The notes beneath the pieces were generated by a model. That model did not search any database, was not told the DNA's origin, and saw only the letters and a program-made list of their open reading frames with translations. 64,000 nucleotides of DNA, taken from contig NC_090406.1 in NCBI RefSeq assembly GCF_036365525.1, positions 6,538,786 to 6,602,785 on the forward strand, written 5' to 3'. Source of the DNA: Heterodontus francisci. Lineage: Eukaryota. The translations under genes were made by a program, and so were the position numbers. This document shows, in pieces, positions 2,361 through 62,682 of the stretch (position 1 is its first letter; the number at the start of each line of letters is the position of its first letter).

Positions 2361-2504
2361 GTAAAAACAGTTCTGATGAAAGGTCACAGACCTGAAATGT
2401 TAACTCTGCTTCTCTCTCCACAGATGCTGCCAGACCTGCTGAGCATTTCCAGCACTTTCTGTTTTTATTTCAGGTTTCCAGCATCTGCAGTATTTTGCTT
2501 TTAT
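2361..2504 (+). mobile_element. Short Penelope-like (pLTR) insertion with hammerhead-like motif
   Basis: agtt-CTGATGA-a-aggtc.aca.gacct-GAAA-tgtt-aact; 13-bp TSD atcagaatagtca (2348-2360 / 2505-2517). Confidence 0.75.
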
Positions 2505-4150: not shown

Positions 4151-4949
4151 TCTTCCCCACATTGAACTTGATCTGCCACAGTTTTTCCCACTCATAGTCT
4201 ATGTCCCTAATGTCCCACTACTATCTACACAAAATTATGGTGCCTTCTAACTTAGTGTCATCTGCAAACTTGGATATGTGCAACTCTCATTCCTTCATAC
4301 AAGTCGCTGATATGCCTATAGGGTGAAAAGCTGAGGCCCCAGTACGGATCCCTTGGGAGCACTACTTGTCACATCCTACCAATCAGAGAATTGTACTGTT
4401 ACCCCCACTCTCTGTCTCATACCTCACAACCAGTAACCAGCTTACCTTCATTTCTGTGCACTTTGTTACTCTTTTATACAGAACCTTAGCATGCTTTCTG
4501 CAAGTCCATATAGACAACATGTATATCCACCATGCTACTGACCACTAAAAAAAAAAACTAGTTAGTTTAGTCGGACATGACTTAGCCTTCACAAATGCCT
4601 GCTGACTCTCTGATCAGCTCAAATTTAAGTGCTTAGTCTGACAGATTCCTGTAACTTCCCAACAACTGAAGATGAAGTGACAGATCTGTAGTTAGCTTGC
4701 TCATCTTTCCCTTCTTAAATAACAGAGTGGCACTTGCAATTTTGTGATCCAAAGGCACAATTCCCTGTATCGAGAGGGCTTTGAAAAGTTCTGACTTAAT
4801 GCATCAGCACTTTCCTCACCCATTTCTAATAGTAGTCCAGGGTGGAAAGCGTTAGCTCCTGGAGATTATTTTCTCCTTTGTACACTGGAAATTTGTCCCC
4901 TTTCTCCACTGTGAAATGAGTAGCAAGTACTCATTTAACAAGACTGCGG

Positions 4950-5050
4950 TTCTAACGAAAGATCATCAACCTGAATGAAACATTAACTGTTTCTGTCTCC
5001 AGAGATGCTGCTTGACCTGCTGAGTAATTCCAGCATTTTCTGTTTTTACT
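4950..5050 (+). mobile_element. Degenerate copy of the Penelope-like short element
   Basis: Similar to 2361-2504 (gaaacattaactg...agatgctg...gacctgctgagt...ccagcattttctgttttt). Confidence 0.55.
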
Positions 5051-5317
5051 TGTCTGATAGTGTCACCTGCATCATTCTTTTAGTTGGGCATGATTGTATC
5101 TGGATTTGATGGATGCTTGCTGGCATTTGTTGCCAAACCTGATACATGAGTAATAGCCACTTGGGCAAGATGCGGCGACTGAATGGTGCCAGTAAGAGTT
5201 AAATCCTACTCTGCTTTGATAAGGGGGGGAAGTTACCAGAGAAATTTGAGAGAGAGAGAGAGGAGTGTCATTTTTTTTAATAACAAATATTCCTAAACAT
5301 ACACACCTGTCTTGCAG

Positions 5318-5449: not shown

Positions 5450-5605
5450 GTAAGTGGCTGGTCAGGAGAATCAACGGGTATTTCTCTGTTATTGTGATGG
5501 TGAATTAGCCATTAAAATACACGACTTTCCTTTATTTTGCATGGGGTTTAATACAGAAATAGATAAGGCAAGTAATCTGGGGAGATGCCATCAGTGATCT
5601 TGGCA

Positions 5606-5809
5606 TAAAAACAGAAAGTGCTGGAAATACTCAGCAGGTCAAGTAGCATCTGTGGAGAGAGAAGCAGAGTTAACGTTTAAGGTCTGTGACTTTCATCAGA
5701 ACCCTCTGATGAAATGTTAACTCTGCTTCTCTCTCCACAGATGCTACCTGACCACCTGAGTATTTCCAGAACTTTCTGTTTTTATTTCAGATTTTCAGCA
5801 TCTTTTATT
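5606..5809. mobile_element. Penelope-like element with inverted arms
   Basis: Left arm is the reverse complement of the right arm; 15-bp TSD tcagtgatc(t/a)tggca (5591-5605 / 5810-5824). Confidence 0.75.
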
Positions 5810-9570: not shown

Positions 9571-9907
9571 GTCATAGAGTGATACAGCACTGTAACAGGC
9601 CCTTCGGCTCACCGAGTCTGTGCCGACCATCAACCACCCATTTATACTAATCCTGCATTAATCCCATATTCCCTACCACATCCCCACCTTCCCTCAATTC
9701 TCCTACCACCTACCTACACTAGGGACAATTTACAATGGCCAATTTACCTATCAACCTGCAAGTCTTTGGCTGTAGGAGGAAACCGGAGCACCCGGCGGAA
9801 ACCCACGCGGTCACAGGGAGAACTTGCAAACTCCGCACAGGCAGTACCCAGAATTGAACCCGGGTTGCTGGAGCTGTGAGGCTGCAGTGCTAACCACTGC
9901 GCCGCCC
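9571..9907 (-). mobile_element. HE1-like V-SINE
   Basis: tRNA-like head (gcgcagtggttagc...gggttcaattc), V-domain gagtttgcaagttctccc...ggtttcctcc, CR1-like tail. Confidence 0.85.
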
Positions 9908-14258: not shown

Positions 14259-14815
<557 letters not shown>

Positions 14816-15153
14816 GTAATACATTTCAATTTTCCTCTGTGTAAGTGTTGTCATACACCATCATTGCTGAGTGAGTGACTGTCCCCATCTTTGGAGGAAA
14901 AGGTTTTTTATTGATTGCTTTGACAGGAGAGAGTATTCAGCTCACCAACAGATAGCCAGGTTCCCAGGACAGTTATCTCTCCAAAACTGGGGAGGGAGGT
15001 GTCTTCAACAGCAATGCAAGTAGCTTGTGGGGAGTTGGGGGAAGAGAGGGGGCTTGGGGCCTAAACCTCTATTGCAGGTGTTTACCCCTCTCCCTGATGC
15101 ATAGGTGTGAAGGAGATGCTGATATGTAGAAAGGACACTGTTTTATTTTGTAG

Positions 15154-15744: not shown

Positions 15745-18700
15745 AATTCAGACTGAATATTGAAGGGTACATGACATTTAGGAAGGACAGGAAGCTAGGA
15801 AAAGGTGGAGGGGTGGCTGTGTTAATGAATGGTATTAGCACAGTAGAGAGGGATGACCTAAATTCAGGAAACCAGGATGTAGAAACGATAAATGACAAGA
15901 AGTCACTTGTGAGAGTGATGGACAGGCCCCCTAACAGTAACCACACGGTAAGACGGGGTATCAAGGAAAAAATAATGGAAGCTTGTCAGAAAGGCACGTC
16001 GATAATCATGGGGGATTTTAATGTACACATAGACTGGAAAAATCAGATAGGCAAAGGTAGCCTAGATAAGGAATTCACAAAGTTTTCAGGAAAGTTTCAT
16101 AGAACAGCACATTCTGGCGCCAACCAGAAAGCAGGGTATACTAGACCTAGTATTGTGCAACGAGATAGGATTAATTAATTAATCATAGCGAAGGCACCTC
16201 TAGGCAGCAGCGATCATAGTATGTGAAAAATTTTACATTCAGTTTGAGGGAGAGAAGAGTGGGTCGAAGACTAGTATTTTATACTAAAGAAGAAGATACA
16301 ACCCAGACAATGGTGAAAGAGGAGGTAATTCAGACTCTAGAAGGGTTTAAAATTGATGAGGAATTATTAGATAGGGTGTCTGTTCTTCAAGTGGATAAGG
16401 CACCAGGACTGGATGAGATGCATCCACGGATACTGAGGGAAGAGACTGGAAATTGCGGAGGCACCAACCATAATTTTTTAGTCTTAGACTTGGGGGTGGT
16501 GTCCAAGTACTGGAGAATTGCAAACGTTACACTCTTGTTCAAAAAAGGGTGTAAAGATAAGCTCAACAACGACAGGCCAGTCAGTTTAACTGCGATGTTG
16601 GGGAAGCTTCTAGAAAGATCAATTCGGGACAAAATTAATTGTCACATGGACAAATGTGGGTTAATTAAAGAAAGCCAGCATGGATTTCTTCAGAGAAGAT
16701 CATGTTTAACTAACTTGCTGGAGTTTTTTGAAGAGATAACAGAGAGGGTTGATGAGGCTAATGGACTTCCAAAAGGCGTTTGATATAGTGCCACACAACA
16801 GACTTGTGAGCAAAGCTATAGCTCATGGAATAAACGGGACAGTAGCAACATGGATACGGAATTGGTTGAGTGGCAGAAAACAAAGAGTAGTGGTAAATGG
16901 ATGTTTTTCAGGCTGGAGGAAGATTTGTAGTGGAGTTCCCCAAGGGTCAATGTTGTGACCTTTGCTTTTCCTGATATGTATTAATGACCTAGACCTTGGT
17001 GTGCAGGACACAATTTCAAAGTTTGTGGATGATACAAAACTTGGAAGCATTGTGAACTGTGAGGGCAAGATAGTATCAAACTTAAAAGAAAAAGCATATA
17101 ATTGCGCAAAAATGGGTGGCAGGTCAGAAAATTGGACAGAATATATAAAAAAGCAAAAAATGATTAAAAGATTAAGTAGGAGGGAAAGATTGAGTACGAG
17201 GGAAAGCTAGTTAGAAATATAAAAACCTATAGTAAGATTTTCTATAGATATTTAAAAAATAAAAGTTAACAAAGTGAGCATTGGTCCCATAGAAAGTGAG
17301 TCTGGGGAATTCATAATGGAAATAAAGGAGATGGCAAATGAATTGAACAGGTATTTTGCATCAGGCTTCACTACAGAGGATGCAAGCAACATCCCAGAAA
17401 TAGCTGTAAATCAGGAAATGAAAGGGAGGGAGGAACTCAAAATTACAATCACCAGGGAAGTGGTACTGAGCAAATTGTTGGAGCTGCGGGCTGACAAGTC
17501 CCCAGTTCCTGCTGGACCTCATTCTAGGGTCTGAAAAGAAGTGGCTAGTGAGATAGTTGATGCTTTCGTTTTAATTTTCCAAAGTTCACTAGATTCGGGG
17601 AAGGTTCCGTTAGATTGGAAAATAGTCAATGTAACTACTTTATTCAAAATGGGAGGGAGACAGAAAGCAGGAAACTACAGGCCAGTTAGTTTAACATCTG
17701 TCAAAGGGAAAATGTTAGAAGCTATTATTAAGGATGTTATAGCAGGGCACTTAGAAAAATTCAAGGTAATCAGGCAAAGTCAACATGGTTTTGTGAAAGG
17801 GAAATCATGTTTAACAATTTATTGGAGTTCTTTGAAAGCTAGCTTTCCCTCGTACTGTAAATTGTTTCCTCCTTATTAATCTTTTAATGTTCTGTGGATA
17901 AAGGGGAACCGGTAGTTGTATGGTACTTAGATTTCCAGAAGGCATTCGATAAGGTGCCACATCAAAGGTTATTGAGGAAAAGGAAAAGCCCATGGTGTAG
18001 GGGGTAACATTTTGGCATGGATAGAAGATTGGCTAGCTAACAGGAAACAGAGAACAGTATAAATGGGTCATTTTCTTGTTGGCAGGATGTAACGAGTGGT
18101 GTGCCACAGGGATCTGTGCTGGGACCTCAACTTTTTACAATTTATATAAATTACTTGGCTGAAGGGACCGATGGTATGGTTGCTAAATTTGCTGATGACA
18201 CAAAAATAGGTAGGAAGAGGACATAAAGGGGCTACAATGGGATATAGGTTAAGTGAGTGGGCAAAGATCTGGCAAATGGAGTATAATGTGGGAAAGTGTG
18301 AATTTTCCACTTTGGCAGGAAGAGTAAAAAAGAAGCGTTTATCTAAACAGTGAGAGATTGCAGAGCTCTGAGATGCAGAGGGATCTGGGTGACCTAGTGC
18401 ATGAATCGTAAAAGGTTAGTACACAGGTACAGCATGTAATTTGGAAAGCTAATAGAATGTTGTTGTTTGTTGTGAGGGGAGTTGAATACAAAAGTAGGGA
18501 GGTTTTTTTTAGATTAGAGATACAGCACTGAAACAGGCCCTTCGGCCCACCGATTCCGCGCCGAACATCAACCACCCATTTATACTAATCCTACACTAAT
18601 TCCATATGCTTACCACATCCCCACCTGTCCCTATATTTCCCTACCACCTACCTATACTCGGGGCAATTTATAATGTCCAATTAACCTATCAACCAGCAAG

Positions 18701-19490
18701 TCTTTGGCATGTGGGAGGAAACCGGAGCACCCGGAGAAAACCCACGCAGACACAGGGAGAACTTGCAAACTCCACACAGGCAGTACCCGGAATCGAACCC
18801 GGGTCCCTGGAGCTGTGAGGCTGCGGTGCTAACCACTGCGCCACTGTGCCGCCCAAGGACACCCAGGTCTTGTTGCACCTCCCCCTTTCCCAATCTATCA
18901 CCATTCAGATAATACTGCAGTTAAACAGGGCATTGGTGAGACCACATCTGGAGCACTGTGTACAGTATTGGTCTCCTTATTTAAGGAAGGTTGTAAATAC
19001 GTTAGAAGCAGTTCAGAGATGCTTAACTGGATTAATACCTGGAATAGGCAGGTTGTCTTATGAGGAAAGGTTAGACTGGCTAGGCTTGTGTCCACTGGAG
19101 ATCAGAAGAGTAAGAGGCGACTTGATTGAAAAATACAAGATCCTGAGGGCTCTTGACAGGGTGGATGTGGAAAGGATGTTTCCCCTTGTGAGAGAATATA
19201 GAACTAGGGGTCACTGTTTAAAAGTAAGGGGTCGCCCATTTAAGCCAGAGATGAGAAATTTTTTCTCTGAGGATCGTGAGTCTTTGAAGCTCTCTCAAAA
19301 GGCGATGGAAGCAGAGTTTTTGAATATTTTTAAGGCAGAGGTAGATGGGTTCTTGATAAGCAAGGGAGTGAAAGGTTATCGGGGGTATGTGGGAATGTGG
19401 AGTTGAGGTTACAGTCGGATCAGCCATGATCTTGTTGAAGGGCGGAATATGGCCAAGTGGCCGACTGCTGCCCCTAATTCACATGTTCAT
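15745..19490 (+). mobile_element. Composite CR1 ORF2 (endonuclease and RT remnants; second CR1 piece ~16283-17065; SINE inserted)
   Basis: RKDR..GKGGGVA and IIMGDFN (APE), KAPGLD, NYRPVSLTS, QHGF, PQGS; the RT N-terminal region occurs twice. Confidence 0.88.
18503..18854 (-). mobile_element. HE1-like V-SINE, full length
   Basis: A-box tggcgcagtgg, B-box ggttcgattcc, V-domain, tail. Confidence 0.88.
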
Positions 19491-20080: not shown

Positions 20081-21550
20081 TTCTTCTTCTTCTTCTTCGG
20101 CCTCCTTGTCTCGAGTGACAATGGGTAAGCGCCTGGAGGTGGTCAGTGGTTTGTGAAGCAGCGCCTAGAGTGGCTATAAAGGCCAATTCTAGAGAGACAG
20201 ACTCTTCCACCGACGTTGCAGATAAAATTGGTTGCCGGGGCTGTTACACAGTTGGCTCTCCCCATGCGCTTCTGTCTTTTTACCTGCCAACTGATAAGTC
20301 TCGTCGACTCGCCATGCTTCAGCCCCGCCTTTATGACTGTCCGCCAGATCTGGCGATCACTGGCAACTGACTCCCATGACTTGTGATCAGTGTCACAGGA
20401 CTTCATGTCACGTTTGCAGACGTCTTTAAAGTGGAGATATGGACGGCCGGTCGGTCTGATACCGGTGACGAGCTCGCTGTACAATGTATCCTTGGGGATC
20501 CTGCCATCTTCCATGTGGCTCACATGGCCAAGCCATCTCGAGCGCCACTGGCTCAGTAGTGTGTATAAGCTGGGGATGTTGGCCGCCTTGAGGACTTCTG
20601 TGTTGGAGATACGGTCCTGCCACCTGATGCCAAGGATTCTCCGGAGGCAGCGAAGATGGAATGAATTGAGACGTCGCTCTTGGCTGTCATACGTTGTCCA
20701 GGCCTCACTGCCGTAGAGCAAGGTACTGAGGACACAGGCTTGATACACTCGGACTTTTGTGTTCCGTGTCAGTGTGCCATTTTCCCACACTCTCTTGGCC
20801 AGTCTGGACATAGCAGTGGAAGCCGTTCCCATGCGCTTGTTGATTTTTGCATGGAGAGACAGGTTACTGGTGATAGTTGAGCCTAGGTAGGTGAACTCTT
20901 GAATGACTTCCAGAGCGTGGTCGCCGATATTGATGGATGGAGCATTTCTGACGTCCTGTCCCAAGATGTTCGTTTTCTTGAGGCTGATGGTTAGGCCAAA
21001 TTTGTTGCAGGCAGCCGCAAACCTGTCGATGAGTCTCTGCAGACACTCTTCTGTGTGGGATGTTAATGCAGCATCGTCAGCAAAGAGGAGTTCCCTGAAG
21101 AGGACTTTCCGTACTTTGGTCTTCGCTCTTAGATGGGCAAGGTTGGACAACCTGCCATCTGATTTTGCGTGGAGGAAAATTCCTTCTTCTGAAGACTTGA
21201 ACGCATGTGAGAGCAGCAGGGAGAAGAAGATCCCAAACAGTGTGGGTGCGAGAACACAGCCCTGTTTCACGCCACTCAGAATAGGAAAGGGGTCTGATGA
21301 GGCGCCGCTATGTTGAATTGTGCCTTTCATATTGTCATGGAATGAGGTGATGTTACTTAGTGGCTTTGGTGGACGTCCAATCTTTGCTAGTAGTCTGAAG
21401 AGACCACGTCTGCTGACGAGGTCAAAGGCTTTGGTGAGATCAGTGAAAGCAACATAGAGGGGCATCTGTTGTTCTCGGCATTTCTCCTGTAGCTGGCGAA
21501 GGGAGAACAGCATGGATCTCTCTGGTCGAAAGCCACACTGCCTCAGGGTA
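20081..21550 (-). mobile_element. RTE-clade LINE, 5'-truncated, with an open RT and C-terminal ORF
   Basis: QCGFRPERS, FTDLTKAFD, GVKQGCVLAP, LFADD, LLYGSEAWT, SRIGLYSH; (GAA)n 3' tail at 20081-20098; possible TSD attgcaa.aa. Confidence 0.92.
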
Positions 21551-22532
21551 TATATTGCAAAAACTAGATTGAAGATATGACCCACTTATTTATTGCTTTT
21601 GAGGGAAATCAATCGGCAATTGCAATCAAATGCAACAAAGCAAGTGGCCATATTTGACCCTTGATTTCCTGCTTGCTCCAATTGTGCCAGTCTCTTCGCT
21701 GTCTCAGTAATTGACAGAAGGGATTACACAGTGTGGTGGGATCTGGAAATCACTTCTTGAAGGGTGGCAAAGGCAGAAACCCTCATTGTATTTTTTAAAA
21801 ATACTTGGATATGCACTGGAAGCGTTGTAACATGCAGGGCTGTCGACCAAGAGTTGGAAAGTGTGATTAGGCTGGATAGTTCTTATTCAGCTGCTCAGAC
21901 ATAGTGGGCCGAATGGTCACCCCTTTCAAAAATACATATTTTAAAATGTTTCTATCCCTGCCTCCTGTACTCGCGAGGCCTCGGCTTTTGGCTGTCCTTC
22001 TCTACCTGTGCTCAGAGCTGGGACTGCCTCTGCTGCACTCTTAGTGAGCAACACCAGAGGAGATCAGCTAGTTGTTGGGAAGGATGTTATGTTTCCTGAA
22101 ACTTAAGCTCCACAAGAAAGGGTTTAAGTAATAATCGCTCAAATTAAAGAGAAACATGTTTGAACCTTCAAAAATGATTTTGCAATTACTGGGACTTCTT
22201 CCTACAGAAGAAACAGTGTCTTCTCAGCTCATCTGAAATAGACCCAATGCTTCCATATCTCAAAAACGCAATCCACCTGATCACTGCAAAAGATTTCTGG
22301 TAATTGGCATTTTACACGGATAAGCCTCTATTGGCAGTGATATTGGGACAGTGAATGGAGTGTTCTCTTCTAAGGTTAGGACTGATGCAGAGTAAGGGGA
22401 ACTTTGCATCCAATATTTCTTGTATTTGACCTGTGAGTCCTTTATGTTAACCTTCTGTGCTCAGAGTGTGGAATTAAATTGAATCCTGCATTTTTTATTT
22501 GTAACAAACTTTGGTGAATTTAATTTATCCAG

Positions 22533-30385: not shown

Positions 30386-30672
30386 CTACTACTTTATCTG
30401 TAAAGCACATTGGGATATCCAGAGGTTGTGAAAGGAACTCTGTAAATAGGAGACTTTTCTTTCAATGAGGAATGAATCAGTGCTTACCTAATTGGCTGTA
30501 ACTACACAATGTTGCTTATGGGGCTGTCAACAAATCCGTAGCTGCAAATCTCACCAACTCTGAACCAAATGCTACAGGCCTTTTCAATCTGACTCAGAAA
30601 ACTGACAATTCCATTTTTGTACCTCGTTCCTGTTACTAACTAAATGGCATTCCTGAAATTGTTAAGTACTGT

Positions 30673-30892
30673 CCCCAGTGTTATACAGTGACAGACCTGT
30701 ATCCACTAGTAATGTACACCAGTGTTATACAGTGGCAGACCTGTATCCACTAGTAATGTACCCCAGTATTATACAGTGACAGACCTGTATCCACTAGTAA
30801 TGTACCCCAGTATTATACAGTGACAGACCTGTATCCACTAGTAATGTACCCCAGTGTTATACAGTGACAGACCTGTATCCACTAGTAATGTA
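30673..30892 (+). repeat. Minisatellite, 5 x 44 bp (ccccagtgttatacagtgacagacctgtatccactagtaatgta)
   Basis: Five near-identical tandem units starting at 30673, 30717, 30761, 30805, 30849. Confidence 0.95.
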
Positions 30893-30896
30893 CCAA

Positions 30897-31292: not shown

Positions 31293-32404
31293 TACCCAAG
31301 ACTTCTACCCATCAGTACTGAACTCCGGTATTATACAAGTGACAATGCTGTGCATTAGTGGTATACAGTGATGGTGCTGCATCCCAGTGTTATACTGTGG
31401 CAGTAGTTCTGCCACTTACCCATTACTGATTTATAATGACTGCTCATCCCCAATGCATTAGATTCAAAATCCTTATCCTTATTGATAAATCCTTCCATGA
31501 TCTCACCGCATCCTATCTCCAGTCTGCTCCAGATCTATAATCGCCTCTCAAACAACTGTTCTTTTGACTCTAGCTTGGTGTGTATCCCTCTGGCTGAAAT
31601 TTCAGCCTACCTTGTCCAACTCTTTGGAACCTCTGTCCCTACACCTCATCACCATCCCCTCCAGTTTTAACTAATTCATCAAGATCTATCTTTCTGGCCT
31701 AGTGTTTAGTCACTCCTCCTCATCTATCCCAAATATTTCAAGTGTCAGTTCTTTATACACCTATATGTGAAGCGTCTAATGATATTTGAATACATCAAAG
31801 GCACAACGTAGGTTGTTATTGTTAAAATCATATAATATGGTTCATGCAGTAGAGTTGTTCCAGGTTTGAAGCCAACCATGCTCGATGGGTTGGAAACTGG
31901 TGGGATACACTAGACGCAAGTCCTCATTTTGTGTGTTATGATTTAGCAAATCAAAAAATAAAACCGTTGTAGAAATGGATAAAATGAAAGCTCTGGAAAT
32001 AGAGAAGGTGAAATAGAAAGGTTAATGCCCCTGGTGCAATCCAAAGGATCACCCTTGCCTTTTCTCCTTTTAGACTCTGCTGGACCTGCTGTGAACCTGC
32101 AGCATTTCCTGTGCTAAATGCCTGGAGCCACTGCTTGATAAAGTTCTTCCTGTTCACCCAAGAGGCATTGCCTAGTCACAAAAAGATCTTTGTGTTTAGA
32201 AGTGTCAAAACTGGCTGCTGGTATAAACTGCATGCGGGAAAGAAAGACTTGCATTTCTATAACGCCTTTCACAACCACAGGATGTTCTAAAGCATTTTAT
32301 AGCCAACAAAATACTTTTGAAGTATAATGTAGGACATGTGGTAGACAATTTTTGCATAGCAAGATCCCACTAACAGCAATGTGATGGTGAAGGGATCATC
32401 TGTT

Positions 32405-32550
32405 CCTTTTCCAGTTCTGATGAAAGGTCACTGACCTGAAACGTTAACTCTGTTTCTCTCTCCACAGATGCTGCCAGACCTGCCGAGCATTTCCAGCACT
32501 TTCTGTTTTTATTTCAGATTTCCAGCATCTGCAGTATTTTGCTTTTATTT
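32405..32550 (+). mobile_element. Short Penelope-like insertion with the best-preserved hammerhead motif (32413-32449), inside a minus-strand Deu-SINE
   Basis: agtt-CTGATGA-a-aggtc.act.gacct-GAAA-cgtt-aact; 7-bp TSD atctgtt (32398-32404 / 32551-32557). Confidence 0.78.
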
Positions 32551-32769
32551 ATCTGTTTTAGTGATGTTGGTTGTTGGCGAAATATGGGCAGGACACAGCT
32601 CTTCTAAACAGTGCCATGGAATTTTTTATGTCCATCTGAGAACAGACAGGACCTATTCTCAACATCCCATCTGAATGACAGCACGTCTGACGATGCAGCA
32701 CTGCCGCCGTATTGGTGGTCCCTGTATCGATCACGACAGATTAAATAGGAACACTGTTCACCTATCGCC

Positions 32770-36332: not shown

Positions 36333-37525
36333 TATCAGGCAAGCGCCCCACCTGCCAAGACTGAGGCACACATAAATTCGCCACATGAAGATTAAAATTT
36401 AAAATTGCAAGCCCCTGACTGGAAAGACGTTTGCATAGTAACAGACAGTGCTGGAACAAAGAGGACCCAGTTGTTGCTTCCCCAATACACAGAAGAAGTG
36501 GTCAGACCAGTTTTAGTCATATGACTAACTGGCTGTTGCAAAGGTTGGAACTGAGTGTTTTAAATTGGAAAAAACAGGATTTGAACTCGCAAAGCCATGT
36601 GCTCCGGTTGGAACAGAACGTCCTCTCCAGTCCTGCCTGCCTCCATTTCTTTCCCATGGAACAGAATCTTGGGAAAATACGTGAACCTCAAAGAGAGAAT
36701 TGGAAAGCTGTGAACAAGGATTCACAAAGGAGGAGCTGAAAACACTGTTTACAATTAAACCCTGGTACAATGAGACCAAGTGAAGACAGCAAAAGACCCC
36801 GAGATACCTGTTTTTAACAGAAATTTGTGTTTTGAGCTCCCCTTTGTGAATTCTTGTTCACAGCTTTCCAATTATAAGACAAAGAAACAAATTCTCACAG
36901 GTTTTCTGAGGTTTAGAGAAGAAAGATGAATTTTTTTAAAAACAAACTCTCATATGGTTAATGCCCACGGATATGACATGCCCACGCCAACATGCACATG
37001 CGACACTCACATGCAAATAGGGACAGAAAAGGGGAGAGGAAAATATAGTAGAGGGGGGTTTGAGGCAATATCAGAAGTTTCTTGTTTACTGTGCTTCACT
37101 TGATTGTAAGTAGTCTTGCTGTTCGTCGGGGCCCAGTGTTGTTCTTAAACCTTGTTCACATAGGAGATTTTTCTCTCTTTGAGGTTCACGTCTTTTCACA
37201 AGATTCAGTTCTGTGGGAAAGAGATGGAGGCAAGCAGCACTGAAGAGGAGGTTCTGTTCCAACCTGGAGCACGCGGCTTTCCGAGTTCAAATCCTGTTTT
37301 CTCCAATTTAAAGTTCCAACCCCTGCAACAGCCAGTTAGTCATGTGACTAAAACTGGTCTGACCACTTCTGTGTAGTGGGGAAGCAGTGACTGTGTCCCC
37401 TTTGTTCCAACGCTGTCTGTTATTATGCAAATGTCTTTCCAGTCGGGCTTGCAATTTTAAGTTTTAATGTCAATGTGGTAAAATAATGTGTGCCTCAGTC
37501 TTGGCAGGTGGGGGCTTGCCTTACA
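36333..37525. mobile_element. Inverted pair of LTR-like sequences inserted in the gag of element 1
   Basis: 36333-36697 is the diverged reverse complement of ~37175-37525, and 36698-36745 of ~36826-36873; TG/TA...CA-like ends. Confidence 0.65.
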
Positions 37526-40500
37526 TACGCCTTCGATATATATTTCAACCTGAGGAGCAATAAGATTCTGGAAAGGGCAAAATCTAACAAAAGAGTCCAG
37601 AAACCACATGAAACAGTTGATGCTTATCTTGATGACCTTTACAGGCTGCCTGAAGGATGCAAATATGGAGACCTAAAAGCAGAATTAATATGAGACCACA
37701 TTGTAGTAAGTATTGCTGATGAATCCCTTTTGGATTTATTGCAGTCTTAAGGAAGACCTCACCCTAGACAAAGCAATACCGCTGGTGAGACAAGTAGAGG
37801 TCCGGAAAAGAACAGAGTAATGCTGACAGGTGAAGAAACCCTTGCTTCAGGAAACCTCCAGCGACTGTTCAGTTCTTTGAGGCTGTAAAAGAAGCACCAG
37901 AGAAAGGAGGTACACTGGGGGGGGGATGCAAGATGACATGAAACCCTGCCCAGCACTAAGGCACCAAAAAGACCCATAGGCACAAACAGCATCCAGCAAA
38001 CAAAGCAGAATGCTTCCACTGTAAGAAAATAGGGCATTTTGGGAAGATGTGCCAAAGTAAAATCTCTACTCACACAGTTTTGAAAGAAAAAGTCTTCACG
38101 CATAGAGCTGTTGTTGAAGTTGATAAATCAGAAAGCTTCCTTGGTGAAATCAATGACCCTAATCAAGCATTCTGGTCTGCAATACATATGTCAACAGACA
38201 GATCACTAATTTTAAAGTAGACATTGGAGCAAGTGTAATGGTTTTATCAGACAATGAACCATGGTTATCAACGCATTACCTGCAACCAGCAGAAACTCAG
38301 CTACATGGCCCAGGAGGGATTGAACTGAAAGTCAAAGGAAAGCTACAGGCAACACTCCAGTACAAGGGAAAGCAGATATTGGAAACGGTATATGTTCTAC
38401 GGAATCACGAATTCTCTCTCTTAAGCAGAGGAGCTTGTATTGAAAAGTGGAAGAAGTTACTTCCAGGAGTCACTTCCAAAAAGACTTTCCAAAATTATTT
38501 ACTGGTCTAGGAAGAGTTAAGACCGAATATAGTATTAAGTTGCAAAAAGATGCTAAACCTGTATGTCTTTAATGCCTAGGAAGATACCACACCCACTAAT
38601 GAAGCAAGTCCAACATCAGCTAGAAGAGATGACCAGGAAAGGAGTCATTTCTCCTGTCGCTGAACCTACAGAGTGATGCTCTGGAATGGTTCCAGTTTCT
38701 CAACTTAACGGTACTCTTCACATTTGTGTAGTCTTAACTTAATAAGGCTGTGGCAAGATAAGTTCATCCAAAGTCCTCAGTAGACGAAAGCTTGGCAAAG
38801 TTATCCAAAAATACCACGTTCACAAAGCTGGATGCGAAAAGTGGCTTTTGGCAAATTCAGTTGGATGAGGTCGAGGTTATTGACAACCTTCATCACTCCA
38901 TTCGGAAGATTTTGTTTTAATTGTTTACCATTCAGCATAACATCAGCACTGGAAATATTCCAAAGAACTATGTCGAACATTTTACAGGGCCTCAAAAGAA
39001 TAATCTGCTATGTGGAAGAGATCTTAGTCCACGGTGAATTCACTGAACGACATGACCTGAGGGTTAGAGCAGTTTCGAATAATCTACAAGGGAAGGCCTG
39101 GCACTTCATGAAAAGTGTGAATTCTCGAAAACTTCTGTTCATTTCTTAGGACACATTGTCAATTGCAAGGGCATAATGGCTGATCTGCAAAAGACGAGAG
39201 CCATTAGTGAATTCCCACTTCCTACTTCTGTCCAAGGTCTTCAACGGTTCCTTGGAATGGTAAAATGTTTACCCAATCTAGCGCAAGTTACTCAATCCTT
39301 AAGACAACTATTAAGGAAAGCTCAAGCATTGTGTTGGGATGCACATCAGGAGCAAGCATTGCAAAGGATCCAGGAAATGCTGATATCGCCAGATACCTTA
39401 GCACATTATAAAGTCCTTACTACTGGCCATAATTGCAGCAGATTCCTCATTTACAGGGTTAGGGGCACTCTTTTTTTTCAAGAACAACCGGATAGATGTC
39501 AAAGACTGGTTTATTATGCATATAGAGCATTGACTGAGACAAGGGACACCATCATAGAGAAAGAAGATCTTGCAGTCACGCGGGCTTGTGAGAAGTTCCC
39601 AGATTTTATTAGCAGCTTAAAGGTGGTCATAGAGACCACAAACCCTTAGTTTCCTTACACGATGAAAAGGAACTGACTAGGCTGCCTCTGAAAATCCAGA
39701 GATTCCGGTCGAGACTAATGAGATTCACGTACGAAACTGTATATGTACAGGACAAGCTACAAACGACAGCAGATGCATTGTCCAGAGCTACTGTCAACCA
39801 TCCTACACAACAGGATATTAACTTTACTAATGAGATTGAGTCATATTCTCAGTTCACTGCATTACAATGGCCGGCAAGCTCAAAAAAGCTCCAAGAAATT
39901 CATTATGCTCATATGCAAGATGAGGAATGCACCTGTATCCGCCAATATTGCACACACAGTTGGCCGCAGCAGCGTCCCAGTAGTAAGATGATTAACATCT
40001 TCTTTGAAAATGAAAACACTTTATGATTGTGGATGATTTGCTGCTCTATGACGAAAGCCTGGTGATTCTAGATTCACTACGGGTAGACGTCTTGGAGAAA
40101 ATACACCAGGGCCACATGGGTATAACAAAATGCAGAGTACAAGCTCAGTCATCCGTGTGGTGGCTGGGAATATCGAGAGATATCGAAGAAATTATTTCTA
40201 ATTGCCAGGTAAGCGCCGTGCACAGACAGAATCAGTGGGAACCCCTTATCTCGACCCAATTTCCAACCAGACTGTGGGAACGTCTGGGGATGGATCTATT
40301 CATGTTTAATGGAAAATCCTACCTGATAGTCATCGACTATTTTTAAGGTGAATTGAACTCAAATATTTGTACACAATGACTACTGAGACAGTCATTTGAG
40401 CTTTATCGAAGATCTTGGCAACACTTTTCACTCCTGACCAGATAGTTTCTGATAAGGGACCGCAATTGGCAAATGACTACTTTATGCACTTTGCAGAAAA

Positions 40501-41214
40501 CTGTGGATTTGTACATCTTACAAGTTTCCCTGGATATCTTCAATCTAATGGGGAAGCTGAGAGAGGAGTCAGAACTATCAAAGCAATGTTAAAGAAGAAT
40601 GAAGATTTTCAAACAGCACTCCTAAACTATAACTCTACTGTTGATGAATGAAGCTCAAAACACAACTTCCCATTCTACCCAAACAATTACTACCAAGGCT
40701 AGATGTCCAGGATTATCAGAGAGTTCAAGACAGAGAAAAGTCTTACTGAAAGCAACAAGCTTTTAATTATAATAGGAAATATTGTATCAGGAACCTACCT
40801 AAGTTGATGGAAGGAGAAAGGTATGGGTACGAGACCAAGACAGAGAAGAAGTAATCATCCAGAGAGATGATAATCAACAGAGATCGTATTTAGTACTTCA
40901 GAAGGTACTATAAGAAGAAACATGAGAAATCTTATTTCTATTCATCAATGACGTCAATCAGTCATACGTTTGGACAAACCAGATGTGAACCTGAGATTCA
41001 GAAAACATTGGATACTACAAGCTTCAATGAAGGTACCGCATCTGACAACACCACGATCAGGGAGAGTTGTGAAGCCTCTTGGCAGATTGAATCTGTGATG
41101 TCGGAGACTTGGGGGGCGGGGAGGGAGATGGGGTAGTATGTAAAAATATATATATATTTATGGATAAAGACTTGGATGTTGTATAAGGGTTTGAAAGGGT
41201 TAATGTTTGAGACA

Positions 41215-42106
41215 AAAACAAGAAATGCTGGAACCACTCAGCAGGTCTGGCAGCATCTGTGAAAAGAGAAGCAGAGTTAACGTTTCGGGTCAGTGACCCT
41301 TCTTTGGAACTGACAAATATTAGAAAAGTCACAGGTTATAAGCAAGTGAGGTGGGGGTGGGGCAAGAGATAACAAAGGAGGTGTAGATTGGACCAGGCCA
41401 CATAGCTGACCAAAAGGTCACGGAGCAAAGGCAAACAATATGTTAATGGTGTGTTGAAAGACAAAGCATTAGTACAGATTAAGTGTTAGTGCACTGAATA
41501 TTGAACAACAAGTGCAAACCTGAAAAAAAAAAAGTGGGTACGCAAACTGAACAAACTAAGATGAAATGAAATAAATGCAAAAAAAAAAGATTGTAAAAAA
41601 TGTAAAAAAAAAGAAAAATAAATAACTAAAAATGAAAGTAAAATGGGGGGGCTGTCATGCTCTGACATTCTTTTTTACATTTTTTACAATCTTTTTTTTT
41701 TTGCATTTATTTCATTTCATCTTAGTTTGTTCAGTTTGCTTACCCACTTTTTTTTTTTCAGGTTTGCACTTGCTGTTCAATATTCAGTGCACGAACACTT
41801 AATCTGTACTAATGCTTTGTCTTTCAACACACCATTAACATATTGTTTGCCTTTGCTCCGTGACCTTTTGGTCAGCTATGTGGCCTGGTCCAATCTATAC
41901 CTCCTTTGTTATCTCTTGCCCCACCCCCACCTCACTTGCTTATAACCTGTGACTTTTCTAATATTTGTCAGTTCCAAAGAAGGGTCACTGACCCGAAACG
42001 TTAACTCTGCTTCTCTTTTCACAGATGCTGCCAGACCTGCTGAGTGGTTCCAGCATTTCTTGTTTTTATTTCAGATTTCCAGCATCCGCAGTATTTTGCT
42101 TTTATT
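41215..42106. mobile_element. Penelope-like fold-back insertion (~400-bp near-perfect inverted arms plus 3' tail)
   Basis: 41215-41610 is the reverse complement of ~41668-42066; 15-bp TSD ttaatgtttgagaca (41200-41214 / 42107-42121). Confidence 0.85.
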
Positions 42107-42315: not shown

Positions 42316-45300
42316 TGTAGTATAAGGGTTAATCTTGAGAGAATATAAAGATTACTGCCCACTAGGATGAGATAACAGATCATGTGGGAGAGACTCAAGA
42401 GCAGTTACAGTGTGGCTTTTGAAGGAGACACACAGGCTAGTGTGGAGTGTATATAATTACTGTACAAAAAGATTAATGTTTAAACAGAACCGCTCTGGCT
42501 AGACGCTATACGGTGGCAGCATAAAGAACCAAATATATAATATGGTGAACAGCGCTGGATACGAAGTTCAATACCCAGAAGAGAAAATTTGAAGCAACAA
42601 TCATCCTTCAGACAGAATAGAAGAAACTTTAAAACAAGTAGCGGAAGGGAAAAAACAAATTACATATCGTAGAAGGTGGAGAAAAGCTCCATAGAACAGA
42701 AGTGTGGCTGAAAAGCAAGCGATCGGGTGAATCATTGTGCTGATGATTGAGAAATCCCGTTTTAAAAAAAATATATAAAATATAAAAAAGCAAATGAAAC
42801 ACTGTCAAGCACCTGCTACACTCCATCAAAGCAAGCTAGCCCAAAAATTGAAGAGTTTCTTAAAATGGAACACGTTTAAAAAGTCTTTAAATTTTTTTTA
42901 AATGGATCAAAAATTGGGAGTGCCAGTGTTTCAAAAGTCACGAGGGACCCAATCAGATTCAAGACTGGGTACTATGGAGGGAAAAGTTCCTCAGATGCAC
43001 AATTGCATCAAAATTGGACAGCAAGTCCGAAACACAGCAAGTCAATACATTATATTTAATTGGTGCTTTAGCTGATATCATAGCAAGCCAATGCATTGAT
43101 GAAATATCAGCCAAATTCAATGAAGTCTTAAAAGCTTGTGATTCCTACTTCGATTTGTGCAGCAATAACAGACCAATCCCGTGAAGTGAGAAAAGACCTT
43201 GGTTCAGGAACCCTCCTGTAACTGTTCAGTTCCTTCACCAGAGGGATGAACAAGAGGCACCAAGAAAAAAGGTACACTTGGGTGGGGGGGGGGGGGGATT
43301 TTTTTGCAGAAAATTAGGGCATTTCAGTAAGATGTGCTGAAATAAAATCTCGACTACCTCAACCTCTAAACGGAAAGTTAAGAATAGAGAGATAAATGAA
43401 GTTACGCAACCTCCTGCAGCAGACCAATCAAAATATTTTCTGGGTGAAATCAATGATCCAAAATATGCATTTTGGTCATCAGACATGTATGTCAACGGAC
43501 ATATCACTAGTTTCAATCTCGACACCGGAGCAAGTGTGACGGTCCTGTCAGATAGAGAGCCATGGCTATCCACGCAGCTTCTGCAATCAACAGAAACTCA
43601 GTTACATGGTCCAGGAGGTGTTGTACTTGACGTAAAGGCGAAGTTACAAGCAGTGCTTCAATATAAGGGAAAGCAAATATTAGAAACACTGTGTCCTAAG
43701 CAATCAGGAGTTCTCGCTCTTAAGTAGAAGAGCTTGTATTGACCTTCGTAAGTTGAGATACTACAGGCACAGTGTAAGCATGTCCCCTCAAAGATAAAGG
43801 GTGGTGCTGCCAAATCTAGAGCCCCCTGGTTATCGAGAAGCTTACAGGGTAAGTTAAAGCAGAAAAAGAAAGCTTATGACGATCACAAAAATCTTAATAC
43901 TTTAGAAAGCCTAGAGGAGTATAGAAAGTGCAGGGGTGAAGTAAAAAAGGAAATTAGAAAAGCAAAGAGAGGGCATGAAAAATTATTGGCAGATAAAATC
44001 AAGGAAAACCCAAAGATGTTTTATCATATTAAGAGCAAGAGGATAACTAAGGAAAGGGTAGGGCCTATCCGAGATGTACAAGGGAACGTGGATGCAGAAG
44101 ATGTAGACAGGGTTCTTAATGAGATTTTTGTCTGTCTTCACAGGGGAGAAGGTTGATGTAGACATTGTAGTTAAAGAGAAGTGTGAAATATTAGAAAAGA
44201 TGAGCATAATGAGGGAGGAAGTACTAGAGGGTCTGACATGCTTGAAAGTGGATAAATCACCAGGGCCGGATGGATTGTATCCCAGGTTGTTAAAGAAAGC
44301 CAGGGAGTAAATAGCAGATGCGCTGAGGATCATCTTCAAATCCTCACTAGATACAGGAGAGGTACCAGACGATTGGAGGTCTGCGAACATTGTACCATTG
44401 TTTAAACAGGGTGCGAGGGATAGGCCAAATAATTACAGGACGGTCAGTCTGACCTCAGTGGTGGGTAAATGTTTAGAATCTATTGAGGGACAGGATAAAC
44501 TGCCACTTAGAAAGGCACGGATTAATCAGGGATAGTCAGCATGGATTTGTTAAGGGAAGGTCATGTCTTAGTAATTAATTGAGTTTTTTGAGGAAGTAAC
44601 TAGGAGGATTGATGAGGGTAGTGCAGTGGATGTGGTCTACATGGAATTTAGTAAGGCATTTAACAAGGTCCCGCATGACAGACTGGTCAGTAAAATGAAA
44701 GCTGATGGGATACAGGGGAATGTGACAGGTTGGATCCAGAATTGGCTCAGGGACAGGAAACAAAGAGTAGTAATCAGCGGATGTTTTTGCGAATGGAAAG
44801 CTGTTTTCTGTGGTATTCCACAGGGCTCAGTGTTGGGTCCCTTGCTGTTTGTGGTATATGTTAATGATTTGGACTTAAATGTGGGAGGCATGATTGGGAA
44901 ATTTGCCGATGATGCAAAAATTGACTCTGTAGTTGATCGTGGAGGATAGCTGTAGACTCCAGAAAGATATCAATGGTTTGGTTGAGTGGGTGGAAAAGTG
45001 GCAAATGGAATTCAATCCGGATGAGTGTGAGGTAATGCATTTGGGGAGGGCAAATAAAGAGAGGGCATACACAATAAACGGGAGGATATTGAGAGGGGTA
45101 GAAGAAGTGAGAGACCTTGGAGTACATGTCCACAGGTCCCTGAAGGTGGCAGAACAGGTAGATAAAGTGGTGAAGGCATATGGAATGCTTTTCTTTATTG
45201 GCCGAGGTATAGAATACAAAAGCAGGGATGTAATGCTGGAACTGTATAAAACGCTGGTTAAGCTACAGCTGGTGTATTGCGTGCAGTTCTGGTCACATTA

Positions 45301-47098
45301 CAGAAAGGGGTGTACAAAATTATGAGGGGCCTAGATAGAGTAGACAGGAAAGAGCTGTTTCCCCGAGTGGAGAGGTTAATTACCAGGGGACACAGATTTA
45401 AGGTGATTGGTAGAAGGATTAGAGGGGACATGAAAACCTTTTTCACCCAGAGGGTGGTGGGTGTCTGGAATTCACTGCCAGGAATGGTGGTGGAGGCAGA
45501 AACCCTCAATTCATTTAAAAGGTACCTGGAACTGCACCTGCACCTGAAGTGCTGTAACCTGCAGGGCTACGGATCAGGTGCTGGAAGGTGGGATTAGATT
45601 GGGCGGCTAGTTTTTTCAGCCGGCACGGACACAACGGGCTGAATGGCCTCCTTCTGTGCCATAATTTTTCCGTGGTTCGATATTCTAAAGAAAGTTGAAG
45701 AAACTCAAAGATTACCAGAGTGTGAAAGAGAAATGCAGCAAGTTCCTACAGGAGTGCTACACAGACAGAGAACTTGGGAAGAAGCAAGTCCAACAAAATT
45801 GTCAAGTACACAGACAAGGTTAAAGACAACCTCTACTTTCGACCCAATTCCCAACTAGACCGTGGGAACGGTTGGCGATGGATTTATTCTTCTCTGAGGG
45901 AAGATCCTATCTAATTATAGTTGATTACTTCTCAAGATGGATTGAAGTTAAGCGGATGTGCACAACAACAACTGAAGTAGTCATCAGCGTTTTACAAGAT
46001 GTTTTCACACCACATGGTATACCTGATCAGATAGTATCTGATAATGGACCACAATTTGCAAATGATTACTTCATGCACTTTGCAGAAGAATGTGGATTTG
46101 TTCACCTAAAAAATCCTCTAAGTATCCACAATCAAATCGAGAAGTGGAGTGAGCAGTCAGAACCATTTAAACTATGTTGATGAAAAATCAAGATTTCCAA
46201 TTAGCACAACTGACAGACAGAACTACTCCATTATTGTGTGGATTAGCACCATCAGAACTCTTAATGGGAAGAAAACTTCGAACACCTTCCAATTCTACCC
46301 AAGAAATTACTTCCAGGATTGCAAAGCAAGGATTATCAGAAAGTACAAGACAAAGAAAAGTCATATCAAACAAACAGACCCCTAATTATAACAAGATAGC
46401 GTACGAGAAACCTACCAAAGTTGTCAGAAGGGCAAAAAGCATGGGTACGAGACCAAAATAGAGAAGGGGTAATTCTCCAGAAAGACGACAATCAACAGCA
46501 ATGTTATCTAGTACGAACTAGAAATAGAAGGAATCTTATTCCTTTTTACATCAAAGATGTCAATCAGTCATATACTTAGAAGACTCAGATGATGAACCGA
46601 GAATTCAAAATGCACTAAATGCTCCAAACCTCAACAAAGGCCATCCAAGTCAAGAAACAAGGGATCAAAGAAAGATTACCAATCTTTCACACCTGACGAC
46701 AAGATCAGGGAGCGTTGTGAAGCCTCCAGACAGGTTGAATCTATGAAGTCAGAGACTTGGGAAGAGATGGGGTAACATGTAAATAAAAAAAGTGAATGTA
46801 TGTAAATATATATTGGGATAAAGACTTGGCGGGGGGGGTGGGGTGGAGATGTAGTATAAGGGTCTCAAAGGGTTAATCTTGAGAGAACGTAAAGATTATC
46901 ACCCACCTGGATGAGGTAAGAGATCACGTGGGAGAGACTGCAGAACAGATACAGCATGGCTTTTGAAGGAGACACACAGGCTAATGTGGAGTGTATATAG
47001 TTACTATACAATAAAAATTAATGTTTAAGCAATACAGTCTAAAAACCTGTCTAGCTAGACTCTACAGGGTGGTAGCATAAAGAACCAAATATATAACA
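42316..47098 (+). mobile_element. Gypsy LTR retrotransposon 2, internally deleted (RT/RH missing), both LTRs present
   Basis: 5' LTR 42316-42542, PBS-like tggtg at 42543, protease LDTGASV, integrase IVDYFSRW/IVSDNGPQF, G-rich PPT 46828-46849, 3' LTR 46850-47098, 5-bp TSD ctaac (42311-42315 / 47099-47103). Confidence 0.92.
43751..45680 (+). mobile_element. CR1 LINE inserted in Gypsy element 2
   Basis: [36 protein letters not shown] motifs. Confidence 0.9.
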
Positions 47099-47889
47099 CT
47101 AACCAAAGATAGAATAGTTCCTGAAGGTGAATTTGCTCTGAGAACTCACCAACAGGGTAACGCTTCGTGCCGTACAGGTGAAAGCTTTCCTGCTGCTCGA
47201 TTCTAAATATTCTGGTGCTCAGTCAGAAGCATGTCATTTGGTGATGTTCTGATGCTCTGTCGCCCTCTTGTGTTTTTGCTTAAACATCAAACTTTCCTCC
47301 TCTGAGTTACCAGCATTGATCCTGTTTTAGAATGCTGTGTCAGCAACATTTTAGGCCATAAATTTGGCACTTCAGTTGTACAGATTTGGTCCCTCCATCC
47401 ATGATAGTTTATTTTTAAAGCTCCCTCTATTAAATCCTCCGAATGCCTTCTGTTCTATGATAGGGTAGTAACTCTGCATTCCTAAAGGTTTGATCAAGTG
47501 ATGATCTGACAATGTGAAGCCTGATTGTGACGTCTGACTGTGTAACATCGACTCGCGTGATGTTTGACTGCTTTATGTCTGACCATCTGACAGCTAAACA
47601 TGTTATTGCACTAACTTTATAACAGTCAGGTCCCCTATCATTGAGTATTTTTGCTTGATTTGCCTCAGCCGCTGTTATTTGAGAAGTTCACGGGGGCACC
47701 CGTGAGCAGGGCGAGGGGAAACCAAGAGGGTGAGCGAGGGAGCGAATCACAGAGCGGAAACCAGAGATGAAATCAAATTTGATTCTCCGGTAACCACTGA
47801 AATTACGCTGATAACCAATAGTAATGCTAGTAACCAAATAATTCACATTTATTATGACCAGAGTATCAGTAATGTGTTGTGGCTGAGTT

Positions 47890-48245
47890 ATTTATTTACT
47901 TTAGAGATACAGCACTGAAACAGGCCCTTCGGCCCACTGAGTCTGTGCCGACCATCAACCACCCGTTTATACTAATCCTACAGTAATCCCATATTCCCTA
48001 CCACATCCCCACCATTCTCCTACCACATCCCCACCATTCTCCTACCACCTACCTACACTAGGGGCAATTTACAATGGCCAATTTAGCTATCACCTGCAAG
48101 TCTTTGGCTGTGGGAGGAAACTGGAGCACCCGGCGGAAACCCACGCGATCACAGGGAGAACTTGCAAACTCCGCATTGGCAGTCCCCAGAACTGAACCCG
48201 GGTCACTGGAGCTGTGAGGCTGCAGTGCTAACCACTGTACCGCCC
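47890..48245 (-). mobile_element. HE1-like V-SINE inserted in the head of a Deu-SINE
   Basis: Same family as 18503-18854; flanks gtggctgag / tggtaacactctcgc rejoin as a SINE A-box region. Confidence 0.85.
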
Positions 48246-48680
48246 AATGGTAACACTCTCGCTTCTGAGTCAGAAGGTTGTGGGTTCCAGGACCTGAGCA
48301 CAAAAATTAACGTTGACACTCCAGAGCAGTACTGAGGGGGTGCTGCACTGTCGGAGGTGCCGACTTCCAGATGAGACATTGAACCGAGGCCCCATCTGCC
48401 CTCTCAGGTGGACATAAACTATTTCATGGCCATTATTTCAAAGAGGAGCAGGGAGTTCTCCCCAGTGTCCTGGTCAATATTTATTCATCAACCAATATCA
48501 TTAAAAACAGAGTAACTGGCCATTATCACATTTCTGTTTGTGGGAGCTTGCTGTGTACAAATAACCTGCCGCATTTCCTACATTATAATAGTCTGCACTT
48601 CAGAAGGACTTCATTGGCTGCAAAGTCCTTTGAGACAGCCAGTGGTCGTGGAAAGTGCTATAGAAATGCAAGCTTTTCTT
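48246..48680 (+). mobile_element. Deu-SINE (SacSINE1-like)
   Basis: cagatgagacattgaaccgaggcccc Deu-domain-like core; tail gtgctatagaaatgcaag. Confidence 0.72.
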
Positions 48681-50215: not shown

Positions 50216-51079
<864 letters not shown>

Positions 51080-53932: not shown

Positions 53933-54070
53933 ATAAAAAATGCTGGAAACACTCAGCAAGTCAGGCAGCAGCTGTAGAGACAGGAACAGCGATAACATTT
54001 CAAGTCGATGACCCTATCGATCTGTTTTTATTTCAGCCTTCCTGCATCCACAGTATTTTGCTTTGGTTTT
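53933..54070. mobile_element. Old Penelope-like copy: inverted arm plus 3' tail
   Basis: Minus-orientation arm (tgctggaaacactcagcaag...) joined to tctgtttttatttcag...cagtattttgcttt tail. Confidence 0.6.
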
Positions 54071-54589
54071 ACTGTATGAATGGTGATCTGAAGAGAATGG
54101 TCCTGCAACCATTTTCATTAACACCACAGTATCTTTGAGTGGAGTGTAGTTTGGTGGCAGTGTGACTGCTTTGTGCTGTGGACAGCTGGAGTCTCTAAGC
54201 TCTGGAATGCCTGACCTCAACCTCCCTGCCTCTCTACCTATCTCTTCCTTATTCAAGACACTTCTTAAAACCTACCTTTTTTGACCAAGTGCAATAGTAT
54301 CTCCTTCCTTGCGCTGATGTCAATTGTTTTTGTCTGATTATATTCCTGTGGAATGTTTTACTGCATGACGGGCACTATATAAGTGCTAGTTGTTGTGGGG
54401 CTGGATGGAGTTTTATGAACTTTTGGACCAACCTGATGGACAACAATGGAAGAGACCACAGTGTTGTCCTATCCACTGCTATCTCTCAGACCCCTTAATC
54501 ACTTTCCTTGCCAAGAGTCTGAACAGTGCCCTGCTGATACTGGCTCCTTTGATGTTCTGTGTGATATATTATTGTGTGAAAAATTATAC

Positions 54590-61851: not shown

Positions 61852-62682
<831 letters not shown>

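Follow-up and report, generated by a model that had tools for sequence, protein, structure and literature searches.

Gene and repeat context of the locus

The window, by which we mean the whole 64,000-nucleotide stretch of Heterodontus francisci DNA analysed here, carries the exons of a GATAD2-type gene on the forward strand, from 5318 to a stop codon near 23660, with a GATA finger recognized by Pfam. This gene is presumably GATAD2A, to judge from peptide motifs and from synteny with TSSK6. Downstream of it, on the reverse strand, lie two TSSK6-like single-exon kinase genes (50216-51079 and 61852-62682) that share 74% DNA identity and are tandem paralogs; among 70 matches to the ORF at 61852-62682, TSSK6 of Mobula birostris ranks first, with 90% identity. 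A 480-aa open RT fragment (20143-21585, reverse strand; RVT_1 E 4e-21), presumably RTE-like, lies within a GATAD2A intron, and decayed pieces of Gypsy-like LTR retrotransposons, with zinc knuckle, protease, RT, RNase H and integrase, occupy 37960-41050 and 43240-47100. A SINE-like repeat of 330-350 bp is present in four copies that are 84-93% identical (9578-9903, 18503-18852, 47888-48247 and 55282-55630). Inverted arms of about 360 bp at 36337-37521, 87-95% complementary in pieces and with a nested hairpin at 36698-36873, look like a MITE or another non-autonomous DNA transposon, and short tandem or low-complexity repeats related to each other are found at 30665-30894 and 14664-14823. The focal insertion lies about 8.7 kb past the GATAD2A stop codon, outside the introns, and it contains a motif with the features of a minimal hammerhead ribozyme of the type found at the ends of Penelope-like elements (PLEs). 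The motif, the insertion that carries it and the related insertions are listed in Table 1.

Table 1. Positions and anatomy of the focal motif and the related insertions in the window.
Feature	Positions	Strand	TSD	Remarks
Focal insertion	32405..32550	+	7 bp, 32398-32404/32551-32557	Solo pLTR-like end with tail, 146 bp, inside older host repeat
Minimal type I hammerhead	32413..32449	+		Stem I AGTT/AACT, CUGAUGA, extra A, stem II AGGUC-ACU-GACCU, GAAA, ACGU palindrome
Predicted cut	32445	+		After GUU, from published consensus
Tail	32512..32550	+		39-nt optional 3' extension, on direct arms, missing from inverted arms
Left TSD copy of focal insertion	32398..32404	+		7 bp; right copy 32551-32557; empty-site paralog near 48511
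Insertion 2361	2361..2504	+	13 bp, 2348-2360/2505-2517	9-10 nt inverted remnant of short 3' end plus direct arm with tail; C15.2>U in the hammerhead
Insertion 4950	4949..5051	+	none	Decayed arm ending at short 3' end; core broken
Insertion 5606	5606..5809	.	15 bp, one mismatch, 5591-5605/5810-5824	Head-to-head pair: tail-less inverted arm with damaged core, direct arm with stem II deleted and part of the tail
Long insertion, inverted arm	41215..41612	-	15 bp around whole palindromic insertion, 41200-41214/42107-42121	Tail-less arm of 892-bp palindromic insertion
Long insertion, direct arm	41668..42106	+	as above	Tailed; upstream body of about 355 nt, non-coding and pyrimidine-rich
TATAA and Inr-like site	41941..41974	+		In long arm; stem I begins at the A of an Inr-like TCAGTTC, and a TATAA precedes this A by 29 nt
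Insertion 53933	53934..54071	.	none significant	Old pair: inverted arm 53934-54020 (core broken) and direct tail-only piece 54021-54071

The focal motif is a minimal type I hammerhead sequence

The bases of the focal motif (AGTT CTGATGA A AGGTC ACT GACCT GAAA CGTT AACT) are exactly as first described. We searched both strands of the whole window with a strict descriptor, namely stem I of at least 3 bp, CUGANGA, an optional extra base, stem II, GAAA, a complementary pair and UH, and the focal motif was the sole match, with 0 of 300 dinucleotide shuffles giving one; permitting a U-G wobble in the palindrome added a match at 2373. A loose pattern of CTGATGA, a gap and GAAA stands at chance level, with three matches in the window and at least three in 28 of 100 shuffles. 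The focal copy has the box, the extra nucleotide, GAAA, the palindromic 15.2-16.2 pair, UH and the stems that characterize PLE minimal hammerheads, and is a real minimal type I hammerhead sequence and, on that sequence, a predicted ribozyme. The Penelope-type reading given in the preliminary description is thus supported by the fit to the published consensus and by the shuffles. The extra A and the palindromic stem III to which it drew attention are indeed present, but they are not peculiar to this copy: the PLE consensus has an extra nucleotide between 9 and 10.1 and a palindromic 15.2-16.2 pair (PMC4209133), and reviews agree on both points and on the abundance of such motifs (PMC6155905; PMC6765202). 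The covariance-model search that had been proposed as a check did not recover the hammerhead: Rfam models gave nine matches in the window at E up to 1 and five at the locus at E up to 10, none of them a hammerhead family, and no match to a tRNA-, 5S- or 7SL-like head in either.

Six insertions with two kinds of 3' end

A BLASTN search of the focal locus against the window returned eight related segments besides the query, which resolve into six insertions once the long arms are traced. This amounts to one insertion per 10.7 kb in the window; about one copy per 10 kb had been estimated first. The five relatives named at the outset (2361, 4950, 5606, 41215 and 53933) are real and belong to the same family, with blastn E values of 1e-61 to 3e-14 and pairwise identities of 78-96% among the six insertions. 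Their portrayal as one uniform short unit did not hold, however: four of the six (2361, 5606, 53933 and 41215-42106) are head-to-head inverted pairs, one is six times longer, and what had been taken for the copy at 41215 is only one arm of an 892-bp palindrome, whose partner at 41668-42106 had been missed. The two arms of this palindrome are identical at 393 of 401 positions and extend 300-355 nt beyond the ribozyme upstream, into pyrimidine-rich sequence with no Pfam match. The 5606 pair has a 10-bp palindrome at its arm junction, and self-comparison of the window revealed head-to-tail tandems in none of the six insertions. The palindromic insertion sits in sequence related to the Gypsy-like pieces, and a weak nhmmer match to the element (32016-32120, forward strand; E 0.0014), 300 bp upstream of the focal insertion and outside the six, is perhaps an old diverged relative.

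Clear TSDs of 13, 15, 7 and 15 bp had been claimed for four of the six copies, and we recovered all four, one 15-bp pair with a single mismatch. The 7-bp TSD of the focal insertion is by itself not significant, being equalled by 14.5% of random pairs; we accept it because, in a paralog of the host repeat that the insertion interrupts, the 7-bp motif occurs once, at the expected spacing, which provides an empty site. The 3' ends of the copies are of two kinds, 39 nt apart, and their distribution between arms follows one pattern in all four pairs, in which tail sequence is found on the direct arm and the inverted arm has the short 3' end. The hammerhead motif lies about 95-135 nt from the 3' end of the element, and the TSD-bounded short copies start within 12 nt of the ribozyme core. 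Short copies are 86-96% alike among themselves and 81-88% identical to the long copy. On these sequence comparisons the short copies and the 41215-42106 copy look like different subfamilies, and the long form has accordingly been seen so far only in the 41215-42106 subfamily, not in the focal one.

Decay of the ribozyme across copies

The strict descriptor is satisfied by one of the six insertions, and by two of the six with the U-G wobble. The cores of 4950 and 53933 are broken, the antisense arm of 5606 is damaged and its sense arm lacks stem II, and the youngest-looking insertion, 41215-42106, has a non-canonical core that reads CCAAAGA in both arms. In one Heterodontus francisci copy of the long-insertion subfamily the corresponding codon specifies E, which means that this copy has an intact G5. 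The pair that closes stem II is A-U in the focal copy, a feature the short copies have in common, G-C in the 41215/41969 arms and G-U in 53933, set against a consensus G10.1-C11.1 that is highly conserved, not universal, with a few deviating rows in the published supplement (PMC4209133).

Preferential conservation of the core bases across copies, against which the preliminary description had proposed to judge its reading, was not seen in this small sample. Invariant ribozyme positions were off the majority in 11 of 66 cells, compared with 34 of 366 downstream, a difference in the wrong direction among six insertions (Fisher p=0.08). Covariation was confined to one of nine pairs, the A-U versus G-C pair closing stem II, where both bases changed in two arms belonging to a single insertion, a result equalled in 111 of 500 shuffles; no selection on the ribozyme was detectable across the copies. 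The predicted MFE fold of the focal copy buries the core (-9.2 kcal/mol, versus -6.5 kcal/mol for stems I and II), the palindrome duplexes are predicted at -1.7 kcal/mol for ACGU and +2.6 kcal/mol for the AUGU of 2361, and single-strand folding gave a significant z-score in none of six stretches (fold z-score -0.9). The core damage, the lack of conservation and the buried core fit dead copies. The ribozyme matters, if at all, in the RNA of the source element, as a dimer or with protein help; in vitro, single PLE minimal hammerheads showed no cleavage and dimers cleaved weakly (PMC4209133).

This bears on the copies near GATAD2A, which had been described as three copies in one intron that would be transcribed in the pre-mRNA. 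They are in or next to introns, but 2361 and 4950 lie upstream of exon 5318-5449 and 5606 downstream of it, and hence two introns are concerned and not one; the exon preceding 5318 was not found in the window, so that 2361 and 4950 are only presumably intronic, and the one intact copy is the focal copy, outside the introns. Self-cleavage of GATAD2A pre-mRNA by these copies might be imagined, since two copies in sense orientation, along with one inverted pair, are located within or beside the introns and 2361 passes the relaxed descriptor. Yet the strict sense-strand descriptor is passed by none of the three: the core of 4950 is broken, the sense arm at 5706 has no stem II and is tied up in a hairpin, the predicted AUGU duplex of 2361 is unfavourable, and lone motifs of this type did not cleave in vitro. 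Intronic copies are moreover expected by chance at the density seen in the window. As the intronic copies are the damaged ones, the implication for the pre-mRNA carries little weight, and we regard such an action as extremely unlikely. Separately, the 5606-5809 pair is predicted to fold, on the sense strand of the GATAD2A intron, into a long hairpin with about 80 bp (-126 kcal/mol, z -18.7), on which RNA editing or small-RNA processing could act. Rfam miRNA matches at 5617-5773 and 36698-36873 were rejected; they fall far under gathering scores and reflect hairpins.

Search for an autonomous element and copies beyond the window

The window has 156 ORFs of 80 aa or more, and a Pfam scan of 150 of these gave no GIY-YIG domain, only a GATA finger and pieces that, from their context, are presumably of CR1/L2, RTE and Gypsy type. 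A scan of window segments of at least 20 aa for PLE motifs found neither a GIY-YIG nor a catalytic RT motif. A profile-free search with the translated 2361 copy among 1.84 billion representatives returned 23 matches, of which three were dropped as unrelated repetitive proteins; the other 20 match the element and then continue into unrelated sequence, two of them with the inverted-pair form. None of the 23 contains an RT or GIY-YIG Pfam domain. Searches among longer proteins in two frames yielded 0 of 13 and 1 of 16, the one being a host peroxidase model, and an exact 22-mer scan of bacterial and archaeal genomes, meant to catch a contaminating eukaryotic contig, gave no match. In the peroxidase model, a Heterodontus francisci gene model named 'eosinophil peroxidase-like', residues 17-61 correspond to the element with 43/46 identity; its presence in the N-terminus represents either an annotation artefact or exonisation. 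Together, the library matches and the horn-shark gene model place the family in unrelated contexts beyond the window and within the named shark. Membership of the PLEs is argued from structure, because neither the window nor the protein matches contained a linked RT/GIY-YIG ORF.

A shared 5' boundary at stem I

The 5' ends of the copies cluster: six of ten arms, or five when 53933 is placed conservatively, begin within 15 nt of one another, from about -12 to +2 of the first base of the core, and the clustered arms begin from different 3' ends. The clustering has p 0.002-0.007 under exponential, gamma or lognormal lengths, values that are post hoc and come from arms that are not independent, and p 0.05-0.11 under a tight normal length model. 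This pattern at stem I suggests that the copies run off an RNA whose 5' end is defined, or else that a splice acceptor lies there. A start site would be in keeping with the TATAA and Inr-like sequence of the long arm (Table 1), a combination noticed post hoc and present at 12 of 1468 Inr-like sites in the window; the short copies have no upstream TATAA. The CAG/TT at stem I could be a splice acceptor instead of a start site. In Penelope of D. virilis an intron ends at helix I (PMC4209133; PMC2377424), and the horn-shark peroxidase model joins unrelated residues about at the CAG/TT boundary. By eye, no upstream exon is shared among the short copies, so a spliced template lacks direct support here. 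Either a start site or a splice acceptor would give a template with a defined boundary. Further sense polypyrimidine-CAG stretches occur at 32449-32467, before a conserved ATG, and at 32500-32518, near the start of the tail; both may be cryptic splice acceptors where the element is inserted in introns.

A more specific proposal, which we consider doubtful, is that the source RNA starts at stem I, with TATAA at -29 and the Inr-like TCAGTTC, and that internal priming 95-135 nt downstream mass-produces solo ribozyme cassettes, with the A-U stem II subfamily possibly a self-standing mini-PLE, present roughly once every 10 kb should the window be typical. If this were true, the ribozyme would be the extreme 5' end of the transcript, and the very numerous copies in shark genomes would show, to the base, where PLE transcription starts and where the two priming sites lie.

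Origin of the insertions

In all four pairs a tail-less inverted arm is joined to a tailed direct arm, and this arrangement, together with the TSDs and the truncation, is the signature of PLEs: the structural marks of these elements, an inverted 5'-truncated copy, a tail (here 39 nt) and TSDs of variable length, are all present. Reading from this anatomy, we consider the copies to be probably (about 0.8) the 5'-truncated, inverted insertion products of an endonuclease-bearing PLE of an elasmobranch, whose pLTR ends carry an ordinary minimal hammerhead. The process may be pictured as follows, with the enzyme and the double priming modelled on PAc. A PLE RT/GIY-YIG protein would nick both target strands 7-15 nt apart, leaving the observed TSDs. 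RT would then start inside the RNA at two sites about 39 nt apart, as PAc biochemistry implies, giving the two 3' ends, and priming from both nicks would produce two cDNAs joined head to head, often at a short palindrome. The RNA template was uncleaved, since the copies keep sequence on both sides of the cut site. More speculatively, and with the odds somewhat against it, most cDNAs would extend no further than the 5' edge of stem I, since the RNA begins or is spliced at that point, in which case the copies of about 100-150 bp would represent run-off from an ordinary PLE transcript. Once inserted, the copies would decay neutrally.

The chief competitor is a dedicated non-autonomous family, SINE-like mini-PLEs or retrozyme monomers, with an RNA of its own of about 140 nt copied in trans by PLE protein. 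It would explain the sharp 5' clustering at stem I under the broad length models, the common A-U closure of stem II and the fact that the short copies resemble one another more closely than they do the long copy. Non-autonomous derivatives of PLEs have been reported (PMC8557442; bioRxiv 10.64898/2026.07.22.740005), and in Adineta pLTR sequence alone mobilised a gene in trans (PMC3846280). The clustering loses strength under the tight length model, however, and run-off from an autonomous transcript explains it equally well. The window has no head-to-tail tandems, the hallmark of non-LTR retrozymes, and no tRNA-, 5S- or 7SL-like head; the short copies lack a TATAA of their own, and the core is not conserved. 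The minimal template of PAc, moreover, reaches ORF nt 172, beyond the initiation sites at 111-118 (PMC11167929), so that copies ending with the tail would miss part of such a template. We judge a dedicated family improbable and keep it as a candidate because a short RNA of its own predicts the same 5' boundary and the short and long subfamilies look different.

Much further down the scale, and very improbable in our view, is a repeat that is real but not a PLE, for instance MITE-like or LINE-dependent, with a coincidental likeness to the hammerhead. The missing ORF link, the lack of an Rfam match, the insignificant covariation and the fold z-score of only -0.9 would all be compatible with coincidence, but the absence of the motif from the 300 shuffles is not, and a TSD length varying from 7 to 15 bp, inverted arms that are unequal by a 39-nt tail, unlike terminal inverted repeats, and a distance of about 95-135 nt between the motif and the 3' end, like that in PLE pLTRs (PMC11167929), all speak for a PLE. 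Under the preferred reading of truncated PLE ends, the earlier step to a non-coding, SINE- or retrozyme-like family mobilised in trans is unneeded and in part contradicted by the inverted arms, the tail and the lack of tandems.

The insertions add an elasmobranch to the record of PLE minimal hammerheads; the 2014 alignment lacks this group, which a 2026 preprint sampled once. PLE ends can enter gene models and give miRNA-like hairpin matches, which is useful to annotation. The pairing of tail-less inverted with tailed direct arms means that genome data can test whether both nicks prime at two internal sites, and the sharp 5' boundary that they can test whether short copies are run-off from the transcript start.

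Comparison with known systems

The focal motif resembles published PLE minimal hammerheads in its CUGANGA box, single extra nucleotide, stem II, GAAA, palindromic C-G, UH and short stem I, and differs in a stem II that closes with A-U, not G-C, and has a 3-nt loop. The 56-motif alignment of PMC4209133 has no chondrichthyan row. PLE minimal hammerheads are on record at 4,000-9,000 motifs per genome (PMC4209133), mostly as dispersed single motifs that probably derive from truncated PLEs. Penelope is listed for the whale shark genome (PMC8455134). In literature outside Repbase, Dfam and most subscription papers we found no description of this shark family, which may well be catalogued in Repbase or Dfam or listed in the supplements of bioRxiv 10.64898/2026.07.22.740005.

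Published PLE insertions are heavily 5'-truncated, have an inverted copy beside them and bear a tail of 30-40 bp at one of their ends (PMC8557442); they are also described with TSDs of 8-10 bp and palindromes at the inverted junction (PMC3846280). The endonuclease-bearing Pen2a/Pen2 elements of Adineta (PMC3846280; PMC8557442) resemble our insertions in having head-to-head arms of which one bears a 30-40 bp tail, TSDs of variable length, palindromes at the junction and a TATA plus Inr-like sequence in the pLTR; unlike them, none of the six insertions here has an ORF and most are 100-200 bp. In PAc, Poseidon of Anolis carolinensis (Frangieh et al. 2024, PMC11167929), RT starts internally at two sites that define the tail, shorter 5' templates give shorter products, ribozyme mutants insert normally and the ribozyme needed protein. 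The likeness lies in two 3' end points close downstream of the hammerhead and in an uncleaved RNA template. The PAc ORF, by contrast, starts at stem II, whereas the focal frame from the core ATG stops after four codons, and no library protein here runs from the element peptide into RT.

Non-LTR retrozymes (PMC7229834; bioRxiv 10.64898/2026.07.22.740005), reported in the one chondrichthyan sampled in the preprint, are likewise non-coding, carry type I hammerheads and are related to PLE pLTRs. They are described as head-to-tail tandems, usually with canonical hammerheads, and as forming circular RNAs, while the copies here are solo or head-to-head with a minimal hammerhead; the window contains neither the tandems of a retrozyme nor the head of a SINE. 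The anatomy fits ordinary PLE ends better than a new SINE or retrozyme, and the family, over-read as a new mobile class, is a further example of known PLE ends.
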